This document shows, one piece after another, positions 1-17,634 of a DNA stretch of 47,300 nt. This stretch comes from a virus (lineage: Duplodnaviria; Caudoviricetes). The stretch covers positions 1 to 47,300 of IMG/VR virus record IMGVR_UViG_3300006947_000019. The stretch is one strand, 5' to 3'. The notes beneath the pieces are model-generated. The model was given only the letters and a program-made list of their open reading frames with translations. It ran no database searches and was not told where the DNA came from. Positions within the stretch are counted from its first letter, which is position 1. Every line of letters starts with the position of its first letter. A program made the position numbers and the translations under genes.

Positions 1-120
1 CCTTCCCAACCATTGACTAGGTATCACTAGGATAGAGATAAATTCTTGTCTCAAATATAGGAGATAATAGAGACAATATCGCATATCGGAATACGGAATA
101 TAAACTAAAACAAGACTAAG

Positions 121-309
121 ATGGAGATAGTAATTAAAGTAAACGACCAAACCGCAAAGCATACGATAGATACAGCTAACTGTGTTTATCCTTACGCTAT
201 TAAAGAAGCCTTTACGTTAGCTATGGAGTTAGATGGATTTTCAAAGGAAACTATATGTGCAGTTTTTGGGGAAACAGAAGACGTTAAATGCGAACTAAAA
301 CAAGACTAA
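121..309 (+). CDS. Hypothetical protein, 62 aa (cassette 1)
   Basis: ATG supplied by repeat copy 1; ends ELKQD* inside repeat copy 2. Confidence 0.8.
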   Translation: MEIVIKVNDQTAKHTIDTANCVYPYAIKEAFTLAMELDGFSKETICAVFGETEDVKCELKQD

Positions 310-310
310 G

Positions 311-532
311 ATGAAAAGACCAAAGACAACAGATAAGGAATGTAAACGACAAGGAATGACAGATGTACCAGTTGCTAATTATAGTAAAATGCAAGATAAG
401 TACATAGATTATTTAGAATCACAAACCAAGCAACGAGTAATCGAGGAGTTGGAAGAGCAACTTGAATTAGCTGAATACTACAATGCCTCAGTAAAATTAA
501 GCGAAAGAATACACGAACTAAAACAAAACTAA
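311..532 (+). CDS. Hypothetical coiled-coil protein, 73 aa (cassette 2)
   Basis: Starts in repeat copy 2, ends ELKQN* in copy 3; shares VIEELEE...RI.(E/Q)LK module with 741-917. Confidence 0.82.
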   Translation: MKRPKTTDKECKRQGMTDVPVANYSKMQDKYIDYLESQTKQRVIEELEEQLELAEYYNASVKLSERIHELKQN

Positions 533-533
533 G

Positions 534-713
534 ATGAAAATAGATAGAAATTTAGAATGGGAGCCGAACTTTGATAATCAAATTGACATTGAAAAGGGGG
601 ACTTTACAATTACCTTAACCAAGAAAAAGATAGAAATCGAATGTGGTACTGAAAGAATGAGTATGACACTTGAACAACTAGAAAATTTGATTAAAGAACT
701 AAAGAGTAGTTAA
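534..713 (+). CDS. Hypothetical protein, 59 aa (cassette 3; not in ORF track)
   Basis: Hand translation from the ATG of repeat copy 3: MKIDRNLEWEPNFDNQIDIEKGDFTITLTKKKIEIECGTERMSMTLEQLENLIKELKSS*. Confidence 0.75.
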   Translation: MKIDRNLEWEPNFDNQIDIEKGDFTITLTKKKIEIECGTERMSMTLEQLENLIKELKSS

Positions 714-740
714 AAATCCAACAACTAAAACAAGACTAAG

Positions 741-917
741 ATGGACTTACGAGATATTACACTAAGAATTGAGGCTTATGTCAATAAGCAAGTAATAGAG
801 GAGTTGGAGGAAGTATTAAAATCCAACATGGATATTAAAGAAACTCCTTTTATATCAGCTATAAATATAGCTAATTTAAAATTAGCAAACAGAATTCAAC
901 AACTAAAAGAGAACTAA
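741..917 (+). CDS. Hypothetical protein, 58 aa (cassette 4; not in ORF track)
   Basis: Hand translation: MDLRDITLRIEAYVNKQVIEELEEVLKSNMDIKETPFISAINIANLKLANRIQQLKEN*; bounded by repeat copies 4 and 5. Confidence 0.78.
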   Translation: MDLRDITLRIEAYVNKQVIEELEEVLKSNMDIKETPFISAINIANLKLANRIQQLKEN

Positions 918-918
918 A

Positions 919-1773
919 ATGATAACAAAAGTTAATAGAAAAGCGCTTGACATTAAAACGAGTGGTAGATCTACGGACTTTATTACTCCTTCTTTTGGTC
1001 ACGGCTGCTTGTACGATTGTAGCTATTGCTACATGAAACGAAACAAACCTAAAGGATTAACAATTGCACAGAATATTGGTGATATACTTACAGAAGTAAA
1101 TAACCACGCATTCTTTACGCCTGTTAACAAACCTAATCAGACGCATGCAGACTATACTACATACGACATCAGTTGTAATGAAGACTTTGCTTTGCATCTT
1201 AAGTATCACGATTGGGAAAACATCTTTGATTTCTTTAAAGATCATCCTGTTGCTATGGGATCGTTTGCTACTAAGTATGTGAACCCTAAGTTGATTGAGT
1301 ATGATCCTGAAGGTAAGATACGTATTAGGTTTAGTCTTATGCCTCAGTATATGTCTACTATACACGAGCCTGGGACATCTAAAATTATTGATAGAATTAA
1401 AGCTATCAATGCATTTATAGATGCAGGCTATGATGTACATGTTAACTTCAGTCCAGTTATTGTGACAAAAACATGGGTAGAAGATTACAAATACTTATTT
1501 CAGATGCTAAATGACTATGTAGATTACAAAGATCAAGTTCTTGCAGAGGTTATATTTCTAACCCATAACGAAAACAAGCATCAAGCTAATCTGATAGACA
1601 AAACAAAAGCTGAAGAGCATTTGTGGAAACCAGATATACAAGAGGATAAAATCTCTCAGTATGGAGGTAAAAATATTAGATATGAAAGAAACCTAAAGCG
1701 TGGCTATATTGCAGACTTTAGAAGACTTCATAATAGTATTATACCCTGGAATACAATTAGGTATATATTTTAA
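919..1773 (+). CDS. Spore photoproduct lyase (SplB)-family radical SAM protein
   Basis: CxxxCxxC motif GCLYDCSYCY; DISCNED (Cys at the position of the SplB H-donor cysteine); FATK, RIRFSL, EPGTS..RI.A....GY.V....SPVI all follow the SPL family pattern. Confidence 0.85.
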   Translation: MITKVNRKALDIKTSGRSTDFITPSFGHGCLYDCSYCYMKRNKPKGLTIAQNIGDILTEVNNHAFFTPVNKPNQTHADYTTYDISCNEDFALHLKYHDWENIFDFFKDHPVAMGSFATKYVNPKLIEYDPEGKIRIRFSLMPQYMSTIHEPGTSKIIDRIKAINAFIDAGYDVHVNFSPVIVTKTWVEDYKYLFQMLNDYVDYKDQVLAEVIFLTHNENKHQANLIDKTKAEEHLWKPDIQEDKISQYGGKNIRYERNLKRGYIADFRRLHNSIIPWNTIRYIF

Positions 1774-1791
1774 CTAAAACAAGACTAAGAG

Positions 1792-2010
1792 ATGAGCGAA
1801 AGAGATATAGACTACCACCTTGGTATAGGATACTGGGTACAAGTCAGCCCTTTAGCTAACGCAGGTTCAGGATGGATATGCGGAGTGTATAAACGAGGCA
1901 AGAAAACTGGTAATTGGGTTACAGAATCCTCTAAACAATTCGCTACACCACACGAGTGTTACAATTGGGCTGACGAAGAGATACATAATTTATTAACTAA
2001 ATACAAGTAA
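1792..2010 (+). CDS. Hypothetical Trp-rich protein, 72 aa (cassette 6)
   Basis: ATG immediately after repeat copy 6. Confidence 0.75.
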   Translation: MSERDIDYHLGIGYWVQVSPLANAGSGWICGVYKRGKKTGNWVTESSKQFATPHECYNWADEEIHNLLTKYK

Positions 2011-2011
2011 A

Positions 2012-2104
2012 ATGACAGAAAAAGAATTCTTTATATGTTTATCAGTCTTCGTAGTACTGGTAGTATTGTACGATAAATCCATAAATAAACGAAAAGGTGG
2101 TTAA
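2012..2104 (+). CDS. Putative 30-aa single-pass membrane peptide (not in ORF track)
   Basis: MTEKEFFICLSVFVVLVVLYDKSINKRKGG*; starts 1 nt after the previous stop in an A-rich context. Confidence 0.55.
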   Translation: MTEKEFFICLSVFVVLVVLYDKSINKRKGG

Positions 2105-2169
2105 AGTATAGCTAAAGTATACACTATAACCATCAACAGTAGATATATTATTTTTGATTCTTTTTTCAT
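2101..2169 (-). CDS. Putative 22-aa hydrophobic peptide
   Basis: MKKESKIIYLLLMVIVYTLAIL*; basic N-terminus plus one hydrophobic helix; stop overlaps the stop of 2012-2104 (TTAA). Confidence 0.35.
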   Translation of the reverse strand: MKKESKIIYLLLMVIVYTLAIL

Positions 2170-2221
2170 AAGGTAAATATATACGATTTATCCGCATTGA
2201 ATGTTAACTAAGTATTAAAAA

Positions 2222-2413
2222 ATGGCAAAGTTTGAGTGTAAAATATGTGGATCCAAGCTAGAACTGGCTAAACATACAATTAAAGTAGAGGACGGTGTGA
2301 TAGTATCACCTGACGCTATGTGTTGCAAGGCCTATATGACTGGTATTCGAGAGAATGCAGGTCTAGGAGGTATTATTAAACGGCCTGGCGGAACAGTCAG
2401 CGGTAAAATTTAA
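2222..2413 (+). CDS. Small Zn-ribbon-like protein
   Basis: CKIC ... CC motif in 63 aa; A-rich start. Confidence 0.65.
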   Translation: MAKFECKICGSKLELAKHTIKVEDGVIVSPDAMCCKAYMTGIRENAGLGGIIKRPGGTVSGKI

Positions 2414-2418
2414 AATAA

Positions 2419-3117
2419 ATGAAATTACCAAAAACTAAAACAAAGGCGTCTAGAAAGTCGCCAAAAAACATGATAATATATGGTGCGCCAAAGATTGGCA
2501 AAACTACTGTATTATCACAGCTTGATGATTGTTTAATTATTGACTTGGAAGATGGATCTGATATGGTTGATGCACTTAAAATAAAAGTGTCTAACCTTAA
2601 AGAACTTGGAGAAGTTGGTAAATCAATTCATGAAGCTAAAAAGCCATATAAATATGTAGCTATTGATACTATCTCAAAACTTGAGGAATGGTGTGAAGCT
2701 GATGCTAAAGTATTGTATATGCAAACTCCTATGGGTAAAAACTTTGATGTAAAGAATCCTGGAGCTTCAGTATTATCCTTGCCTAACGGCGCAGGCTTTT
2801 TGTATTTACGAATAGCATACAAAAGATGGATGGACAAACTGAACACTCTAGCAGATCACATCATTTTAGTTGGACATCTTAAGGATAAAATGCTTGAGAA
2901 GAAAGGTAAGGAAGTAGCTGTTAAAGACTTAGACCTTACTGGTAAGATTAAGCAGATTACATGCGCAAATGCTGACGCAGTAGGTTATTTATACAGAGAA
3001 GATGAGAAAACTATGATTTCTTTTGACTCTTTAGATGATATTACTGCAGGAAGTAGATGCGAACATTTAAAAGGGAAGACTATGCCCTTAGACTGGTCAA
3101 ATATTTTTATTGATTAA
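2419..3117 (+). CDS. Phage AAA/P-loop NTPase (AAA_24 / Sak4-like recombination ATPase)
   Basis: Walker A GAPKIGKT, IDLEDG, Walker B VAIDT, ILVGH, DAVGY; typical of crAss-like replication blocks. Confidence 0.85.
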   Translation: MKLPKTKTKASRKSPKNMIIYGAPKIGKTTVLSQLDDCLIIDLEDGSDMVDALKIKVSNLKELGEVGKSIHEAKKPYKYVAIDTISKLEEWCEADAKVLYMQTPMGKNFDVKNPGASVLSLPNGAGFLYLRIAYKRWMDKLNTLADHIILVGHLKDKMLEKKGKEVAVKDLDLTGKIKQITCANADAVGYLYREDEKTMISFDSLDDITAGSRCEHLKGKTMPLDWSNIFID

Positions 3118-12114: not shown

Positions 12115-15100
12115 TTAACGCTCTTTAATTTTATCGCTTTCTCTTACTTCTAACACATTGAATATTGCATCTAATCCAGGTACAAATTTAGGTACGTAAT
12201 GAAAAGGACCTGTTTTATCTTTTTGGTCGTTTTGTCCAAATGCAATATCTCTAAAAGTATCAGCAGTATTACTTGCAAGCTTTTGGATATTAGTACCCAT
12301 TGATATAAGAGGTATCCCACCACTTCTAGAGTCAAAGAATTCACTAGGATCTACAAATACTGCAGTCTCTCTGTAAGCTCTGTTTAATGTCTTATACAAT
12401 TGTCTTCCGGCCCATGTTTGTCTTATGTCTTTTTTACCGTCATCATCCCAATCTCCTCCCATAAGCATAATAAGCATAAATAATAACGATGCGCCTCGGA
12501 ATTCCATCATAAAAGATCTAATGTTACCTCTTTTCATGTCTAGAAACTCTTGATACATTTTTTCTTTTTGCTCAGGATTTTTTATTCTATCTACGAATTC
12601 AGGATTTGTAGAATTTGAAGCTACCCATTGTTCAAATGCTGCTTTAGCTTTCTTTTCATTAACTTTAAAAGAGTTGCTATATCCAAATGTAACAACATCT
12701 AATCCTACCTTTACAAGGTCTTGCCCATAAGCACTTATTATTTCTGCTATTCCTACTTCTGAATTAACAAGCTGTTGTAAAGTTATGTCTCCACCTAAGT
12801 TTCCTAAAGATGTTGTCCATGTACCTTGGTCAAAAGCTTCAAGTATATGGTCATATCTAGTTCTACCAAATCTTTCCATAGCTACACCTGGTAACCAAGA
12901 CTTGTAGTGCATAAGTAATCTAAGAAATAAAGTATTATTGTAAAGAGCTACATCTTCATCAGACATACTACCTTTTACTTTATCACCTATCCTTCTAGCT
13001 ACTTGTCTAAATTGGATCTCTCCAGAGTTGTCCATGTTACCTATCTTAACTTTGTATCTGTTTCTTGCAGATTCAGATACATTAGATATTGCTGAAGACC
13101 ATTTAGGATCTTCCTCTATTTCCATAAGATCTATTAAATTTTTAGAACCTTCTGGTAATCTATTTAGCAATGTAGGCTTACCTTCTGCGTTTAACCCATA
13201 GTTAAGTGCTAAAGCATATACTCCGATGGCATCTATTCCCCTATCAGCTGTTCCTAAAAATGCAAACCACTTATCATTTGTAATATGCTTAGTTATTAAA
13301 CGGCTAGAAAGCTTGTTTGCTCTTTGCTCAGCTATATCAAATTGATATACATCAAAATGTTCTGCTAGCGCTCTCATTTTAGGATTGGCAGACATTAAAG
13401 CTTTTTGAGCTTTTATTAAATTTCCAGGAGTAATAAAAACTCCTTTAGATGCTTGCTGTCGTAATCCAAATTGTCCTGCTAAAAATGCACCGAATGCTAC
13501 AGGAGTCTTTAAACCTAAAGTAGTTTGAGAATGTAACATTTTTAAAGCCATTAGAGTTTTAGTACCACTAAGCCCAAGAACATTAAAATCTTTGCTAACC
13601 CCTGAAGACCCATATATATACTGATCTACAAATTCACTAAATACTTTAGAAGTTCCTTTAGAATTGAATATCTTTTTAGCTGCTCCTGATATATTAGTCA
13701 GAATCTCGCCCGTAACGCTATCTACTTGTATTTCTGTTGCAATATTATTTTCTAGAAGCAGCTGCATAGTCTGAATCTCAGGTAATACATCATCTTTAAG
13801 TTTATAATCCATAGCAGCACTACCTAATAGTAGTAAGCTTTTACCTAAGTCTCTACTTTTAAGAGAGTGATCTATATTACCTTTACCGTCTACTAAAGGG
13901 CGCATGTATAATCTAGGTATACGTCTAACAAGTTCATTTGTATTTTCATCTCTTACACCAAAGCTAAGATCATGCTCTCTAATTTGTAAAGACTCTAACA
14001 CAGATTTTGACATTCCTTTAAACCCATCTTCAAGTAAATGTTCCATAGTATTCTTATGGATATTAGCTATGAATCCTGATCCGAGCTCCTGTCCCATCAT
14101 TTCTTCAATCTCCGCAGTCTTTTCTAAGTAGAAATCATAGAAATTCTTAAGAGCTGGGGTATTTTGTATCTTATTGTATTCGTCAGATATATGAACATCT
14201 GTAGCCTTCAAGAACCAACGTCCTCCATAGCTAAACATAGCTGTTTTAGGATGCTTCACTATGTTGTGGGTCTTATCCCATATTAGCATCTCTCTATCTA
14301 TAGCTTTAGAGTTTCCTTTGTATTTTCTCTTAAATCTAGCTAATTGGTGCTTTCTATATATAGGAAACTTTTTATCAAATTTTACTTTATCCACTTGAGT
14401 GTTTTGCTCTAACCAAGTTTGATTACCAGATTTAATAGCATTAGCTCTATCTACAAAAAATTGTTTATTGTACTTCTGAATAAGATTTCCTGTATCATTA
14501 TTGATGATAAGATCAAAAACTTTTACACCTTTATATCCATTGTTATTTCCCCATTGAAGTAAAGGTTCTTGAACATCTTCTATTTCTTCTGCAAGACTTT
14601 TAACAGATTTTCTATGCTGATGTTGAATATCTATTACTATATTGTACAGAGTACGTAAATATGGATTATTTTGCTTAGATAAAGTAACAAACTTTCCAGT
14701 TATAAAATCTGTAGAAACATTAAAGTCTTTAATTCCTTTAATACCACGATTTTCTGTAAAGTCAACAGCACGTGTCATTAATTTATCTTCAATTGCACTT
14801 CTTAAGTTTGTTAGAAAACCAGCTGTTTTTTCTCTAATAGCATTGTATTCTTCTTTTTCTTTCTCAGTTGCTTCGTTATTCAAGTATTCATTATAATCAG
14901 ATGTACTTAAAAATCCTGAATAAAATAATACATCATCATGAGCTGCTTGCAGTTCTTCTAAGTCCATGTAATCTGGATTGATAACTTGCTTACCTTTCTC
15001 AGTTATAAACTCATCGTCTACAGCTAAGTTATCTAATGTATCTTTTAACTCTTCTTGGACACCTTCTAATACAAATTTAACATCTTGATTTAATTGTAAT

Positions 15101-17634
15101 TTTCTAATCTGACGATCTAGTTTTTCTTTTCTCTCTTTTACTAAAAGCCACTCTTTACCTTTTTTTAACTTTTGCCCATCTAACTCTGCTTGCATACGCT
15201 GACTTCGAGTAATAGCTTTTGTAATAAGCACATTTAATGACTCAAAGTCTGTCATTTCTTCTGCAACAGGTATTTGCTCTAAGAACTCACTATCTGCTCC
15301 TATTTGTAAAGTAGTTATTTCACTAGTAATTTTTCTATCTACGTATTTAAAACGAATATGTATAGGTACAATACGAGATTTTCTAATTTTAGTAACTCCG
15401 TATTGTTCTAATAGTGTTTGTTTATAATGACCTATCTGTAAGTTGTACGTATCCATCTTAACGCTGAATGGATCCTTAACTATCTGATAACCTTTACCTG
15501 GGACCCACTGGACATATCCTCCCTCTATTGACGGAGACACAAACTTCCAGTCATATACCTCTGCAGATCCATCACTGAATACAGCTATAAGGTCAATCGT
15601 ACCACCAATACCTTCAGAAATACTTTCACCCTTTTTTCTAAGGATAAATTGCTCTGTTCTAATAACAGCTTTTTCTTTGGTACCGTTCTCTTTGTTGATC
15701 TTGTCTTGGGTCTTTTTAATTTCCCGTAACATTTTCTTAATCTCTTTGTCTAAGCTATCAAACTGAGACTTTTTAAAAGGAGAGTTGCGAAAGATACTGT
15801 CCAGACTTTGCCCAGACGTACCCTTATAGAAATTAACTAAATCCTCCATGGTCTTATGACCTAAAGTACCTGTTTCTTTCCTAAGAGTAGAATATCTTTC
15901 TAATTCCGTGTTTTCTTTGTCGGTAAGAACGTTTTTTTGTCTTTTTTTTGTTTTCTTGTAAAAATACTTCTTAACTTCATCCGATACACGGCCTATAATA
16001 ACAACTCCTTCGTATTTAGTGCCTGGAATCCCTACATATCTTTCTATTTCCGGCCCGTCTTCTACAAACCAAGGTTGTTTTAACCCTAATTCTTCTGCGT
16101 TACGCGCTGTACTTTGGAAAGCATTTGAAAGTTCATCTAAATTCTGTAGTACTCCTTTTCTAGGATCATCTACAGTATCTGGATTGTCTTGGAACATCTC
16201 CAGTACCCCAGCAGTCTTAGCTCTCCTAACATTTAGAGACTTAAGAATTTCTTTGTTGAGCATTAATGCAGCTGTTCTTGCATATGGATTAGAAAGTACT
16301 CCACCAAACATTTTGTTTATGAAATTCATCACCTTCTGAAACCATCTTTGTGCTCTACTATGTTGTGCATTTGTGTCACTACCCACAGTTTGGCTAACAA
16401 GATTTTGAGCGATAAGTTTACCTATAGCTTCTTTCTTAATCTTGTCAATATTACCTTTATACTGCTCAATATAAAATTCATTCTTTGATACCTCCTTGTA
16501 CACGTCGTACTTCTCTATCATGTTCATCATAGATGTGAATAAAGGACTACCATTAGCCTCTAAAAGTTCTACGATAAAGTGAGCTGCTTCTTCAGGTAAT
16601 GTATCTATACCTGCTTTTCCAGCAATGATCTGTATGATGTTGTTTAGCATGTCAGCCTTTGCGACTGCGTCTACTGCTTGACCCTCAGAGTTTCTAATAA
16701 CAGTTGAAGACATATCAACCTGTACACCTAAGTCTTCCATTAACTTAGACATCGCAGTGTTTAAATCTTCGTTAGCTTCTCTAATATCTGCAGACTCTTT
16801 TTGGTGGTAGATGTTATCAGGAGAAAGTAAATCATTTGTAGTTAATCCTATTACATTACCTTGCGCAAGACGTTCTATAAAAGCATCTACCCCTGGATAG
16901 TTTTTGTGAATTCTTTCTACAACATCTGTTGGATTTGTAACCACTTTACGCACACCTGTTTCTGTACGTAGTTTATATACTTCTTCAACTTCAGCAAGTA
17001 ATGGAGACATATCCGGAGAAGTAAAAGTCCCGTAGTTTTCTGTAGCATGTTTTATTTGGTCAGGCTCAAAGGCTACCATTTGCTCTCCATGTGCAAAATC
17101 CCTAGAGTCATCACCTGCATCCATAAAAGTATCTTCACCAATGAATATACCATCATGGCCTAAACCTTCTAGATCTTTGTGGTGCTCATTTCTACTTTGA
17201 TACTTATTTCCTTCATTCCCAGCATATCCATTCCAAAAATCTTTATAGTTTTTTGGAGATGAGATGTTTAAAAATGTAGGGTGTATATTTATATTACTTT
17301 CTGATAATCCTCTAAACTTAGCCATGTTAATAGCTGCGGACTTCTGGTCTGTAAACCAAAATCCAGTATCAGATTTTTCCTTGTTAAAGATTTCTATAGC
17401 CTCAGAGCTAGCATGGTACACTATCTTAGGTTCTCCATTCTTATCTACCATCTTAGACTCCCCAAACCAATGCTGGAATGTAGGAGTTTGAGTAGTAGCC
17501 CATTTCTTGAGGGCATCCTCTGGTGCGAGCCCTAAGTCTTCTGTTAAGGTTTTATAAAGAATAGAATCTTTCCCGTTAGGAGCTAGCACTTTGGCTACGC
17601 TTCCATTTTCATGTCTTACTATGCTACAACTCAT
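12115..17634 (-). CDS. Large ejected virion (cargo) protein: ART-PolyVal-like domain, degenerate zincin, RecB-type PD-(D/E)XK nuclease
   Basis: APNGKDSILY...TPTFQHWFG; SKMVDKNGEPKIVYHAS...GFWFT...GHDGI...EQMVAFEPDQIK; LPEEAAHF; GTLGH...GTIDLIAVFSDGSAEVYDWK...YNLQIGHY. ATGA-coupled to the RNAP gene. Confidence 0.75.
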   Translation of the reverse strand: MSCSIVRHENGSVAKVLAPNGKDSILYKTLTEDLGLAPEDALKKWATTQTPTFQHWFGESKMVDKNGEPKIVYHASSEAIEIFNKEKSDTGFWFTDQKSAAINMAKFRGLSESNINIHPTFLNISSPKNYKDFWNGYAGNEGNKYQSRNEHHKDLEGLGHDGIFIGEDTFMDAGDDSRDFAHGEQMVAFEPDQIKHATENYGTFTSPDMSPLLAEVEEVYKLRTETGVRKVVTNPTDVVERIHKNYPGVDAFIERLAQGNVIGLTTNDLLSPDNIYHQKESADIREANEDLNTAMSKLMEDLGVQVDMSSTVIRNSEGQAVDAVAKADMLNNIIQIIAGKAGIDTLPEEAAHFIVELLEANGSPLFTSMMNMIEKYDVYKEVSKNEFYIEQYKGNIDKIKKEAIGKLIAQNLVSQTVGSDTNAQHSRAQRWFQKVMNFINKMFGGVLSNPYARTAALMLNKEILKSLNVRRAKTAGVLEMFQDNPDTVDDPRKGVLQNLDELSNAFQSTARNAEELGLKQPWFVEDGPEIERYVGIPGTKYEGVVIIGRVSDEVKKYFYKKTKKRQKNVLTDKENTELERYSTLRKETGTLGHKTMEDLVNFYKGTSGQSLDSIFRNSPFKKSQFDSLDKEIKKMLREIKKTQDKINKENGTKEKAVIRTEQFILRKKGESISEGIGGTIDLIAVFSDGSAEVYDWKFVSPSIEGGYVQWVPGKGYQIVKDPFSVKMDTYNLQIGHYKQTLLEQYGVTKIRKSRIVPIHIRFKYVDRKITSEITTLQIGADSEFLEQIPVAEEMTDFESLNVLITKAITRSQRMQAELDGQKLKKGKEWLLVKERKEKLDRQIRKLQLNQDVKFVLEGVQEELKDTLDNLAVDDEFITEKGKQVINPDYMDLEELQAAHDDVLFYSGFLSTSDYNEYLNNEATEKEKEEYNAIREKTAGFLTNLRSAIEDKLMTRAVDFTENRGIKGIKDFNVSTDFITGKFVTLSKQNNPYLRTLYNIVIDIQHQHRKSVKSLAEEIEDVQEPLLQWGNNNGYKGVKVFDLIINNDTGNLIQKYNKQFFVDRANAIKSGNQTWLEQNTQVDKVKFDKKFPIYRKHQLARFKRKYKGNSKAIDREMLIWDKTHNIVKHPKTAMFSYGGRWFLKATDVHISDEYNKIQNTPALKNFYDFYLEKTAEIEEMMGQELGSGFIANIHKNTMEHLLEDGFKGMSKSVLESLQIREHDLSFGVRDENTNELVRRIPRLYMRPLVDGKGNIDHSLKSRDLGKSLLLLGSAAMDYKLKDDVLPEIQTMQLLLENNIATEIQVDSVTGEILTNISGAAKKIFNSKGTSKVFSEFVDQYIYGSSGVSKDFNVLGLSGTKTLMALKMLHSQTTLGLKTPVAFGAFLAGQFGLRQQASKGVFITPGNLIKAQKALMSANPKMRALAEHFDVYQFDIAEQRANKLSSRLITKHITNDKWFAFLGTADRGIDAIGVYALALNYGLNAEGKPTLLNRLPEGSKNLIDLMEIEEDPKWSSAISNVSESARNRYKVKIGNMDNSGEIQFRQVARRIGDKVKGSMSDEDVALYNNTLFLRLLMHYKSWLPGVAMERFGRTRYDHILEAFDQGTWTTSLGNLGGDITLQQLVNSEVGIAEIISAYGQDLVKVGLDVVTFGYSNSFKVNEKKAKAAFEQWVASNSTNPEFVDRIKNPEQKEKMYQEFLDMKRGNIRSFMMEFRGASLLFMLIMLMGGDWDDDGKKDIRQTWAGRQLYKTLNRAYRETAVFVDPSEFFDSRSGGIPLISMGTNIQKLASNTADTFRDIAFGQNDQKDKTGPFHYVPKFVPGLDAIFNVLEVRESDKIKER

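Follow-up and report, generated by a model that had tools for sequence, protein, structure and literature searches.

Our findings centre on a 21-nucleotide (nt) repeat that stands in front of each of six consecutive genes at the start of the window, by which we mean the whole 47,300-nt stretch of viral DNA that was analysed (IMG/VR record IMGVR_UViG_3300006947_000019, here the complete record G000). This repeat is probably a stop-plus-start junction held in common by otherwise unrelated marine phages, at which whole small genes are gained, lost and reordered, likely by general recombination proteins that each phage encodes itself and that use short stretches of exact homology. The gene units carried between copies of the repeat (cassettes) are nearly identical (96-99%) across a T4-like, a crAss-like and a third packaging lineage, and codons are frozen both within the repeat and within a second block while the gene bodies vary mainly at synonymous sites. 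An initial annotation of this DNA had proposed plug-in cassettes that are added, removed or shuffled at the repeat; the variation of gene content and order between identical repeats supports this, and the sharing across phage families, the second frozen block within the commonest cassette gene, the shared leader upstream of the array and the adjacent Sak4-like annealase go beyond it.

The junction repeat and its distribution

Six copies of the repeat stand in the window, as had been annotated. Copies at 103, 293 and 723 match the 21-mer exactly and that at 516 has one mismatch; at 1772 the first 19 nt match and the ATG is displaced by 2 nt, and the copy at 901 differs at four positions, any other site in the window at six or more. 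No match at three or fewer mismatches arose in 100 dinucleotide shuffles of the sequence. The copies are spaced by 190, 223, 207, 178 and 871 nt, in line with the 178-223 nt noted earlier for all but the 871-nt unit of a spore photoproduct lyase-like (SPL) gene. Every copy provides the ATG of an open reading frame (ORF; starts at 121, 311, 534, 741, 919 and 1792), and at 293, 516 and 901 the upstream ORF terminates within the repeat as LKQD*, LKQN* and LKEN*, respectively, which confirms both coding roles that had been assigned to it. At 723 the preceding ORF stops about 10 nt upstream of the repeat, the stop of SPL at 1772 includes the first two A's of the repeat, and at 103 the upstream DNA is non-coding. 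The earlier description of the copies at 723 and 1772 as exact, though not translated with the upstream gene, thus stands for 723 and holds for the first 19 nt only at 1772. Among 27 other gene starts checked in the window, structural genes included, none approaches the 18 nt preceding the ATG to within seven mismatches. The repeat has no AGGAG core, and neither a dyad nor a hairpin is formed by the repeat regions, whose folding energy is -1.3 kcal/mol or weaker. Because the same array is present in a second viral contig (L002) at 99.97% identity, and Logan contigs from other public runs span the window junctions (84-547 in run X12 with 0 differences, 833-2100 in X6, 395-744 in X2 and 528-752 in X3), these junctions are not inventions of assembly.

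Beyond the window, 56 viral loci contain the exact 21-mer, against 2 for a control junction taken from core genes of the window, and so do at least 127 metagenome loci, for 80 of which flanks were taken; a one-base variant (the LKQE form) is found in 20 viral loci. There is overlap among these loci, which do not count as independent genomes: the 56 from viruses and the window fall into 38 clusters. One record with the length and the repeat positions of the window (L232) was left out of every count. The 463 copies in 231 loci and the window keep to a single strand per locus, with 0 of 463 on the opposite strand, and an ATG stands at the end of the repeat in 219 of 230 distinct contexts (at the same offset in 196). 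Five carrier genomes (57-147 kb) hold 17 copies, confined to one or two small regions per genome, and the 16 copies in four further contigs are likewise clustered, one of them standing alone before a Mom-like gene. The alternative raised with the initial annotation, a genome-wide initiation motif preceding many core genes, was rejected on these grounds, the repeat being confined to such regions and not placed before core genes. An origin in host integrons was also rejected, since the 19-mer is at chance level in prokaryotes (four isolated matches in 185,579 genomes versus about 4.3 expected with uniform bases). Dialects of the joint, with LKQE*, LKQ* and LK* endings, were seen in five loci (L073, L184, L186, L194 and L202); they retain the 5' core, and the spacer before the ATG varies.

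Breakpoints, shared cassettes and frozen codons

Alignment of the 38 de-replicated loci gave 182 internal alignment ends on each side. Of these, 84 on the left and 79 on the right fell at the 103 repeat-bearing starts, compared with 18 and 15 among 401 other gene starts; repeat windows account for 1.1% of the compared sequence, and the locus pairs are not independent. Breakpoints in the repeat, as predicted from the window, are thus found between related arrays. Conservation, about 35% just upstream of the repeat, reaches 96% at its 5' edge (position 0), and 59 of 91 left ends lie precisely there. Taking 45-60 nt on either side of the 21-nt repeat, 200 combinations are seen among 122 left and 125 right types; 35 of the left and 31 of the right types have 2-10 partners, and 115 of the 247 left and right types are joined in one network. 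The endings of 125 left types comprise 65 that read LKQD* in the repeat, 7 at its first TAA and 3 overlapping its first bases, while the rest stop upstream (29), lack an ORF (13), are leaders (6) or are of other kinds (2).

A constant gene order in relatives, the pattern that the initial annotation had named as contrary to its proposal, is not what the loci show. The 3' end of gene 2 (numbered as in Table 1) is followed by four alternatives (gene 3, gene 4, GroEL or another micro-gene), and its start is preceded by 4 different sequences in other loci; the start of gene 4 has 8 different left sequences. One haplotype is without unit 1, the leader being fused straight to gene 2, and another is without unit 3, a Logan contig joining 526 to 733 with sides of 179 and 49 nt. 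Two loci (L009 and L041) share with the window the leader (98-99%) and the SPL unit (887-1797, 95% identical), which has other neighbours there, and the cassettes in between differ; two more (L007 and L025) are 99.9% identical over 2.9 kb and then differ by one 121-nt repeat-to-repeat unit. Cassette adjacency also forms a cycle, F1>F0>F4>F1, with each edge found in 3-5 contigs, so in-register exchange alone is insufficient and looping-out with re-entry, or unequal crossing-over, suffices. Three loci (L051, L013 and L055) carry a four-gene block between F13 and TerS, which are adjacent at a near-match junction in L054; the 10 nt around the ATG of that junction are present at both ends of the block, and the difference fits a single crossover with a circle, or the reverse deletion. 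Of 80 loci with SPL homologues, 5 have the repeat at the stop, and their proteins are 93-100% identical to that of the window; the other 75 have the same last residue without the repeat. This fits a recent capture of SPL via a two-base overlap. In L017 the F0 cassette lies between phage groES and groEL (GroES, F0, repeat, GroEL), so the joint enters conserved operons too. Another record (L022/G007) unites a TerS/TerL arm with a crAss-like early region (99.97% identical to L040), joined exactly across a shared cassette; it is a probable mis-assembly, or else a true inter-family recombinant, and was excluded from long-range claims and retained in local junction counts.

The carriers belong to distinct lineages. 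G001 is a T4-like myovirus (Portal_T4, Gp23, sheath, gp32, RecA/UvsX), a crAss-type TerL is found in G002, G003 and G005, and G006 has a third, 390-aa TerL; G004 and G003 share 44 protein pairs, and G001 shares only 2-4 with the others. Between a T4-like array (L047, which matches the ends of G001) and the crAss-like L007, cassettes F1 and F4 are 95.8% and 98.1% identical, respectively, and F0 is 99.0% identical to that of L051, of the third TerL lineage. The flanks of the shared cassettes are about 51% alike, versus 54% for a random control. One short, defined joint marks exchanges among T4-like, crAss-like and third lineages that share almost no core genes, which points to a host-defined gene pool that disregards phage taxonomy.

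The F0 family has at least 383 representatives at 50% identity, and the repeat's peptide terminates 127 of the best 150 of them. In 17 distinct F0 genes, TTG is fixed in 17/17 (13% in core genes) and AAC in 17/17, GAG in the mid-gene block is kept in 16/17 and 14/17, and CTA-AAA at the 3' end in 16/17; the set comes from 22 loci fetched by a codon-degenerate pattern, with duplicates collapsed, and has shared ancestry rather than being 17 independent trials. By comparison, the bodies of cassette genes have pN/pS values of 0.07-0.25 in five of six computable families; F4 stands at 1.02 (five changes), and three families were not computable. The second block is itself a place of exchange, with 21 N-terminal and 24 C-terminal halves in 28 combinations, the N-half of gene 4 occurring with five C-halves, and Logan contigs carry the half-gene joints 778>446 and 785>435. 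A profile search for F0, with matches tested against the first sequence, confirmed 7 loci. The F0 protein falls in no Pfam or PHROG family and has no tblastn match in 50,697 phage records; its Atlas matches were all below 0.8, and Foldseek gave none in BFVD that reached E<=0.001. It is predicted to be a helical hairpin, and a role as a binder is a guess.

The similarity of the leader to L009/L041 stops at repeat 1, and at least seven different first genes follow the leader among the loci; swaps occur just after it as well. It is modular (window 1-102, L007 3403-3518 on the minus strand, L004 2470-2650, L019 2258-2316 and L017 4279-4396 on the minus strand), and the stem sequence of its hairpin varies with pairing apparently kept, as judged by eye; the RNAalifold consensus is weak, with stems of unequal length. 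In some relatives tRNA-like pieces precede the hairpin (Rfam tRNA 36-38 bits), and searches of the leader as a known RNA gave two weak tRNA matches in relatives and none with ARAGORN. The Bacteroidota -7 promoter motif is TAnnTTTG, and it is absent from the window leader. In some runs the leader has a summed contig depth about 100x that of parts specific to the phage, which suggests that its carriers are many; one RNA run (X20) gave small pieces only, which do not demonstrate transcription. Window positions 75-113, the final module of the leader, are common with cultured Cellulophaga phages (L061 251-290, L062 1111-1151, L063 5-30, L064 567-604 and L065 253-286), namely the Pachyviridae phi18:3, phi13:2 and phi19:3 and the Assiduviridae phi10:1 and phi19:1, with a different sequence after the shared module in each. 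In L064 (~560-660) and L061 (~250-330, minus strand) an imperfect inverted repeat, attC-like by eye, lies before the module. Cellulophaga isolates with this module could serve as a test system.

Proposed homology-driven exchange and its alternatives

We propose that the repeat would serve as a strong Bacteroidota initiation region, unstructured, with A at -3, -6 and -14 to -11 and stops in two frames; these positions match initiation determinants measured in F. johnsoniae, as far as the available text of PMC6847099 goes. Most incoming genes would end in or just before the repeat and the next gene would be re-initiated, so that a swap would yield a working operon under one leader. Annealases or UvsX/RecA (Sak4 in the window) could bring repeats together, aligned or shifted, inside one genome or between phages infecting the same cell. 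Deletions and duplications would result, as would loop-outs able to insert again at a different copy or at a near-match junction. The capture of ordinary genes such as SPL would depend on infrequent joins by microhomology at the natural gene ends, and copies would remain identical because a drifted copy leaves the exchange pool. General recombinases were found as Sak4 in the window, G003 and G004, Sak in G005 and a UvsX-like protein in G001. The lack of a visible site-specific recombinase in the window, remarked on in the initial annotation, was borne out by PHROG and Pfam searches and extends to the five near-complete carriers, none of which has PF00589 (14/14 controls) or PF00239. Swaps are found at the second block and after the leader too, which is what homology-driven rather than single-site recombination would predict. 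Annealases act on short, divergent sequences, according to the portion of PMC8093625 available.

Several points weigh against this proposal. For homologous recombination, 21 nt offers little length. In many cases the exchange may use the homology of an entire shared cassette or of the leader instead of the repeat, and a host enzyme may act in trans. No recombinase was found in G002, where the early region is cut, and contigs of eight runs revealed no circles or active recombinants; terminal repeats, the sign of a circle, were absent from every locus (Logan joints whose shorter side spans about 21-23 nt represent nothing but the repeat and did not count as circles). The L051/L054 event may be an insertion or a deletion, long-range orders need caution because L022 looks chimeric across a shared cassette, and protein selection contributes, as 65 of the 125 left types read LKQD* in frame. 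Loci retrieved by the exact 21-mer are biased towards conservation, the unbiased sets being the 80 loci of SPL homologues and the codon-degenerate F0 fetch, and cultured phages show the repeat only as 4-mismatch sites, in nine Cellulophaga stretches. Furthermore, the Sak4 of HK620 is a weak annealase without its SSB (PMC5928155, in the text available).

The repeat may instead be kept as the site of a translational regulator or as an optimal, SAS-like re-initiation signal, with gene swapping as a by-product, which we consider unlikely. The ATG at its end, the constant strand and the A positions that match known determinants would all agree with such a role, and SAS, in the available part of PMC3203893, are also non-palindromic, one-stranded and limited to non-structural genes. 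However, 27 other starts in the window, structural genes included, are without the repeat, its C, G and T positions are not fixed by known initiation determinants, the second frozen block lies mid-gene and distant from any start, and the five genomes have no regulator in common. This alternative alters why the sequence is kept, not that swaps happen at the repeat.

A dedicated enzyme, an unrecognised sequence-specific recombinase or nicking enzyme encoded by phage or host and moving gene-sized circles as an integrase does, would account for the sharp 5' edge at position 0 and for sharing that crosses phage families, and the cyclic cassette order and the single-crossover-like insertion fit circles. 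We nonetheless hold it to be improbable: PF00589 and PF00239 are absent from the five carriers, no protein family of at least 60 aa is common to all five genomes, the site has neither dyad nor hairpin, swaps occur at the unrelated second block too, variants such as the LKQE form are tolerated, and the repeat is only at chance level in host genomes. Little credence can likewise be given to an extended version, in which unrelated families of marine Flavobacteriia phages would share a gene bank of circles closed at the 21-nt joint and moved by such an enzyme, the commonest cassette (at least 383 clusters) being a natural combinatorial library of helical-hairpin binders, for example anti-defence inhibitors, with front half and loop reshuffled at two frozen blocks.

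Chimeras of metagenome assembly or amplification at a short repeat are a very remote explanation of the mosaic. Many contigs do terminate at or near the repeat and L022 appears chimeric, but a 21-nt repeat with 45-60-nt sides is spanned by assemblers, identical joins come back in separate contigs and in the k=31 Logan assemblies of eight runs, and the frozen codons and the SPL capture are independent of assembly across repeats. Hardly more credible is an RNA intermediate, with reverse-transcribed, gene-sized mRNA pieces inserted at the repeat, which would suit the gene-sized, promoterless units, the precise capture of SPL from ATG to natural stop and the tRNA-like pieces in some leaders, but RVT_1 (PF00078) is absent from the five carriers and from the window, and half-gene swaps and intergenic units (29/125 left types stop upstream) are simpler as DNA events.

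The carrier phage and known systems of gene exchange

By its gene content (ring, muzzle and giant virion genes, and the crAss-type TerL and capsid of its closest relative) the window appears to be a fragment of a crAss-like marine phage. Its proteins match CrAss_Ring_1, CrAss_Ring_2 and crAss_MUZ in Pfam, and it is syntenic with the 95-kb G002 (TerL phrog_6681, head protein phrog_11589). The hosts are likely marine Flavobacteriia, judging from the crAss-like genes, the starts without a Shine-Dalgarno (SD) sequence and the leader common with Cellulophaga phages. The array (Table 1) is located at the start of the replication arm, 400 nt upstream of the Sak4-like annealase. Elsewhere in the window, a 1839-aa protein (12118-17634, minus strand) with an ART-PolyVal ADP-ribosyltransferase domain near its N-terminus adjoins virion genes of 4338 and 2070 aa, and an rIIA/rIIB-like pair in this crAss-like phage (6475-10512, plus strand) is 85-91% identical to G002, with neighbouring genes at 25-70%.

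Table 1. Features of the cassette array and its surroundings in the window.
Feature	Position	Strand	Basis
Non-coding leader; contig begins in 3' arm of a hairpin complete in relatives	1..102	+	1-125 98-99% identical to L009/L041
Junction repeat 1, exact	103..123	+	window scan
Cassette gene 1, 62 aa, no family, ends LKQD*	121..309	+	ORF and family searches
Junction repeat 2, exact, in frame as LKQD*	293..313	+	window scan
Cassette gene 2, 73 aa, F0 family (RVIEELE...RIxELKQ)	311..532	+	family comparison
Second frozen block (QRVIEELE codons) in gene 2, half-gene swap point	431..454	+	Logan joints 778>446, 785>435
Junction repeat 3, 1 mismatch, LKQN*	516..536	+	window scan
Cassette gene 3, 59 aa, no family	534..713	+	ORF; missing from one haplotype
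Junction repeat 4, exact, untranslated by upstream gene	723..743	+	window scan
Cassette gene 4, 58 aa, F0 family, predicted helical hairpin	741..917	+	pLDDT 85.7, helices 3-30, 38-57
Second frozen block in gene 4	789..809	+	codon comparison
Junction repeat 5, 4 mismatches, LKEN*	901..921	+	window scan
SPL-like radical SAM gene, carried as cassette	919..1773	+	Pfam SPL E 2.4e-25
Junction repeat 6, 19 nt exact, ATG shifted 2 nt, overlaps SPL stop	1772..1794	+	window scan
Gene 6, 72 aa, phrog_29167; final unit, without repeat downstream	1792..2010	+	PHROG match
Sak4-like single-strand annealing protein; candidate recombinase (putative role)	2419..3117	+	phrog_124 E 3.4e-31; Pfam AAA_24

The turnover of tiny accessory genes in phages is a long-standing question, in which targeted exchange at linkers is set against random illegitimate recombination followed by selection. 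Our survey of the literature on repeat-mediated gene shuffling in phages found no paper on this junction type, most subscription papers and supplements lying outside its coverage. The initial annotation had likened the array to an integron without an integrase, which holds as an analogy, while the attC anatomy is absent and shuffling of the PeSL or linker kind is closer. The attC core motif is RYYYAAC...GTTRRRY, and this core pair is absent from window 1-2400 on both strands. The GTTRRRY core is also given in PMC9892861, whose available text describes integron and CALIN cassettes as co-oriented, promoterless, gene-sized units behind one leader and in variable order, as here; unlike an integron, the array has no R''/R' core, no hairpin and no IntI-like tyrosine recombinase. 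The SAS of cluster K mycobacteriophages are also non-palindromic, one-strand repeats that stand before ATGs of non-structural genes and are rare in the host, but in the accessible part of PMC3203893 they are 13 bp long, contain an SD core, are scattered over half the genome and have a proposed role in translation, whereas the 21-nt repeat is SD-less and clustered, contains the upstream stop and marks breakpoints. A comparison with Mu-like phages was set aside, since no common flanking target appears there in the text available (PMC4378225).

The repeat resembles more closely the PeSL of T4-type phages, likewise a repeated sequence before small ORFans in variable regions (PMC2839356 and PMC4122927, as far as both texts are available), and single-gene indels bounded by the repeat in close relatives are found in both systems (here L007 versus L025, and window units 1 and 3). 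For PeSL, the available text of PMC2839356 reports mini-circles obtained by inverse PCR with the dedicated recombinase not identified, and its authors draw the comparison with integrons; the 21-nt repeat is known from contigs and loci, none circular there. PeSL are intergenic promoter-plus-terminator elements of about 100 bp in T4-type phages, whereas the present repeat is 21 nt long, overlaps coding sequence, acts at the level of translation and spans T4-like, crAss-like and third lineages. Promoter-like sites are at chance level (12 versus 10.6 +/- 3.0), with none in the repeats, and there are 0 terminator-like sites in window 1-2500, where the sole hairpin is that of the leader, before the first repeat. 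As the principle is already known from PeSLs, the repeat is a variant and not a new category. It may be seen as a handle for collecting accessory genes, with 125 right-hand types from one motif, among them UV-repair and possible anti-defence genes. In the Botstein-Campbell linker model, as summarised in the accessible part of PMC2839356, modules are exchanged via conserved flanks that preserve their placement and expression, and the array follows this model with a module that is a micro-gene or half-gene and a linker that is a near-invariant stop/start joint across phage families. The 21-nt site, the Sak4 next to it and flavobacterial hosts that can be grown in culture open the linker model to experimental test.

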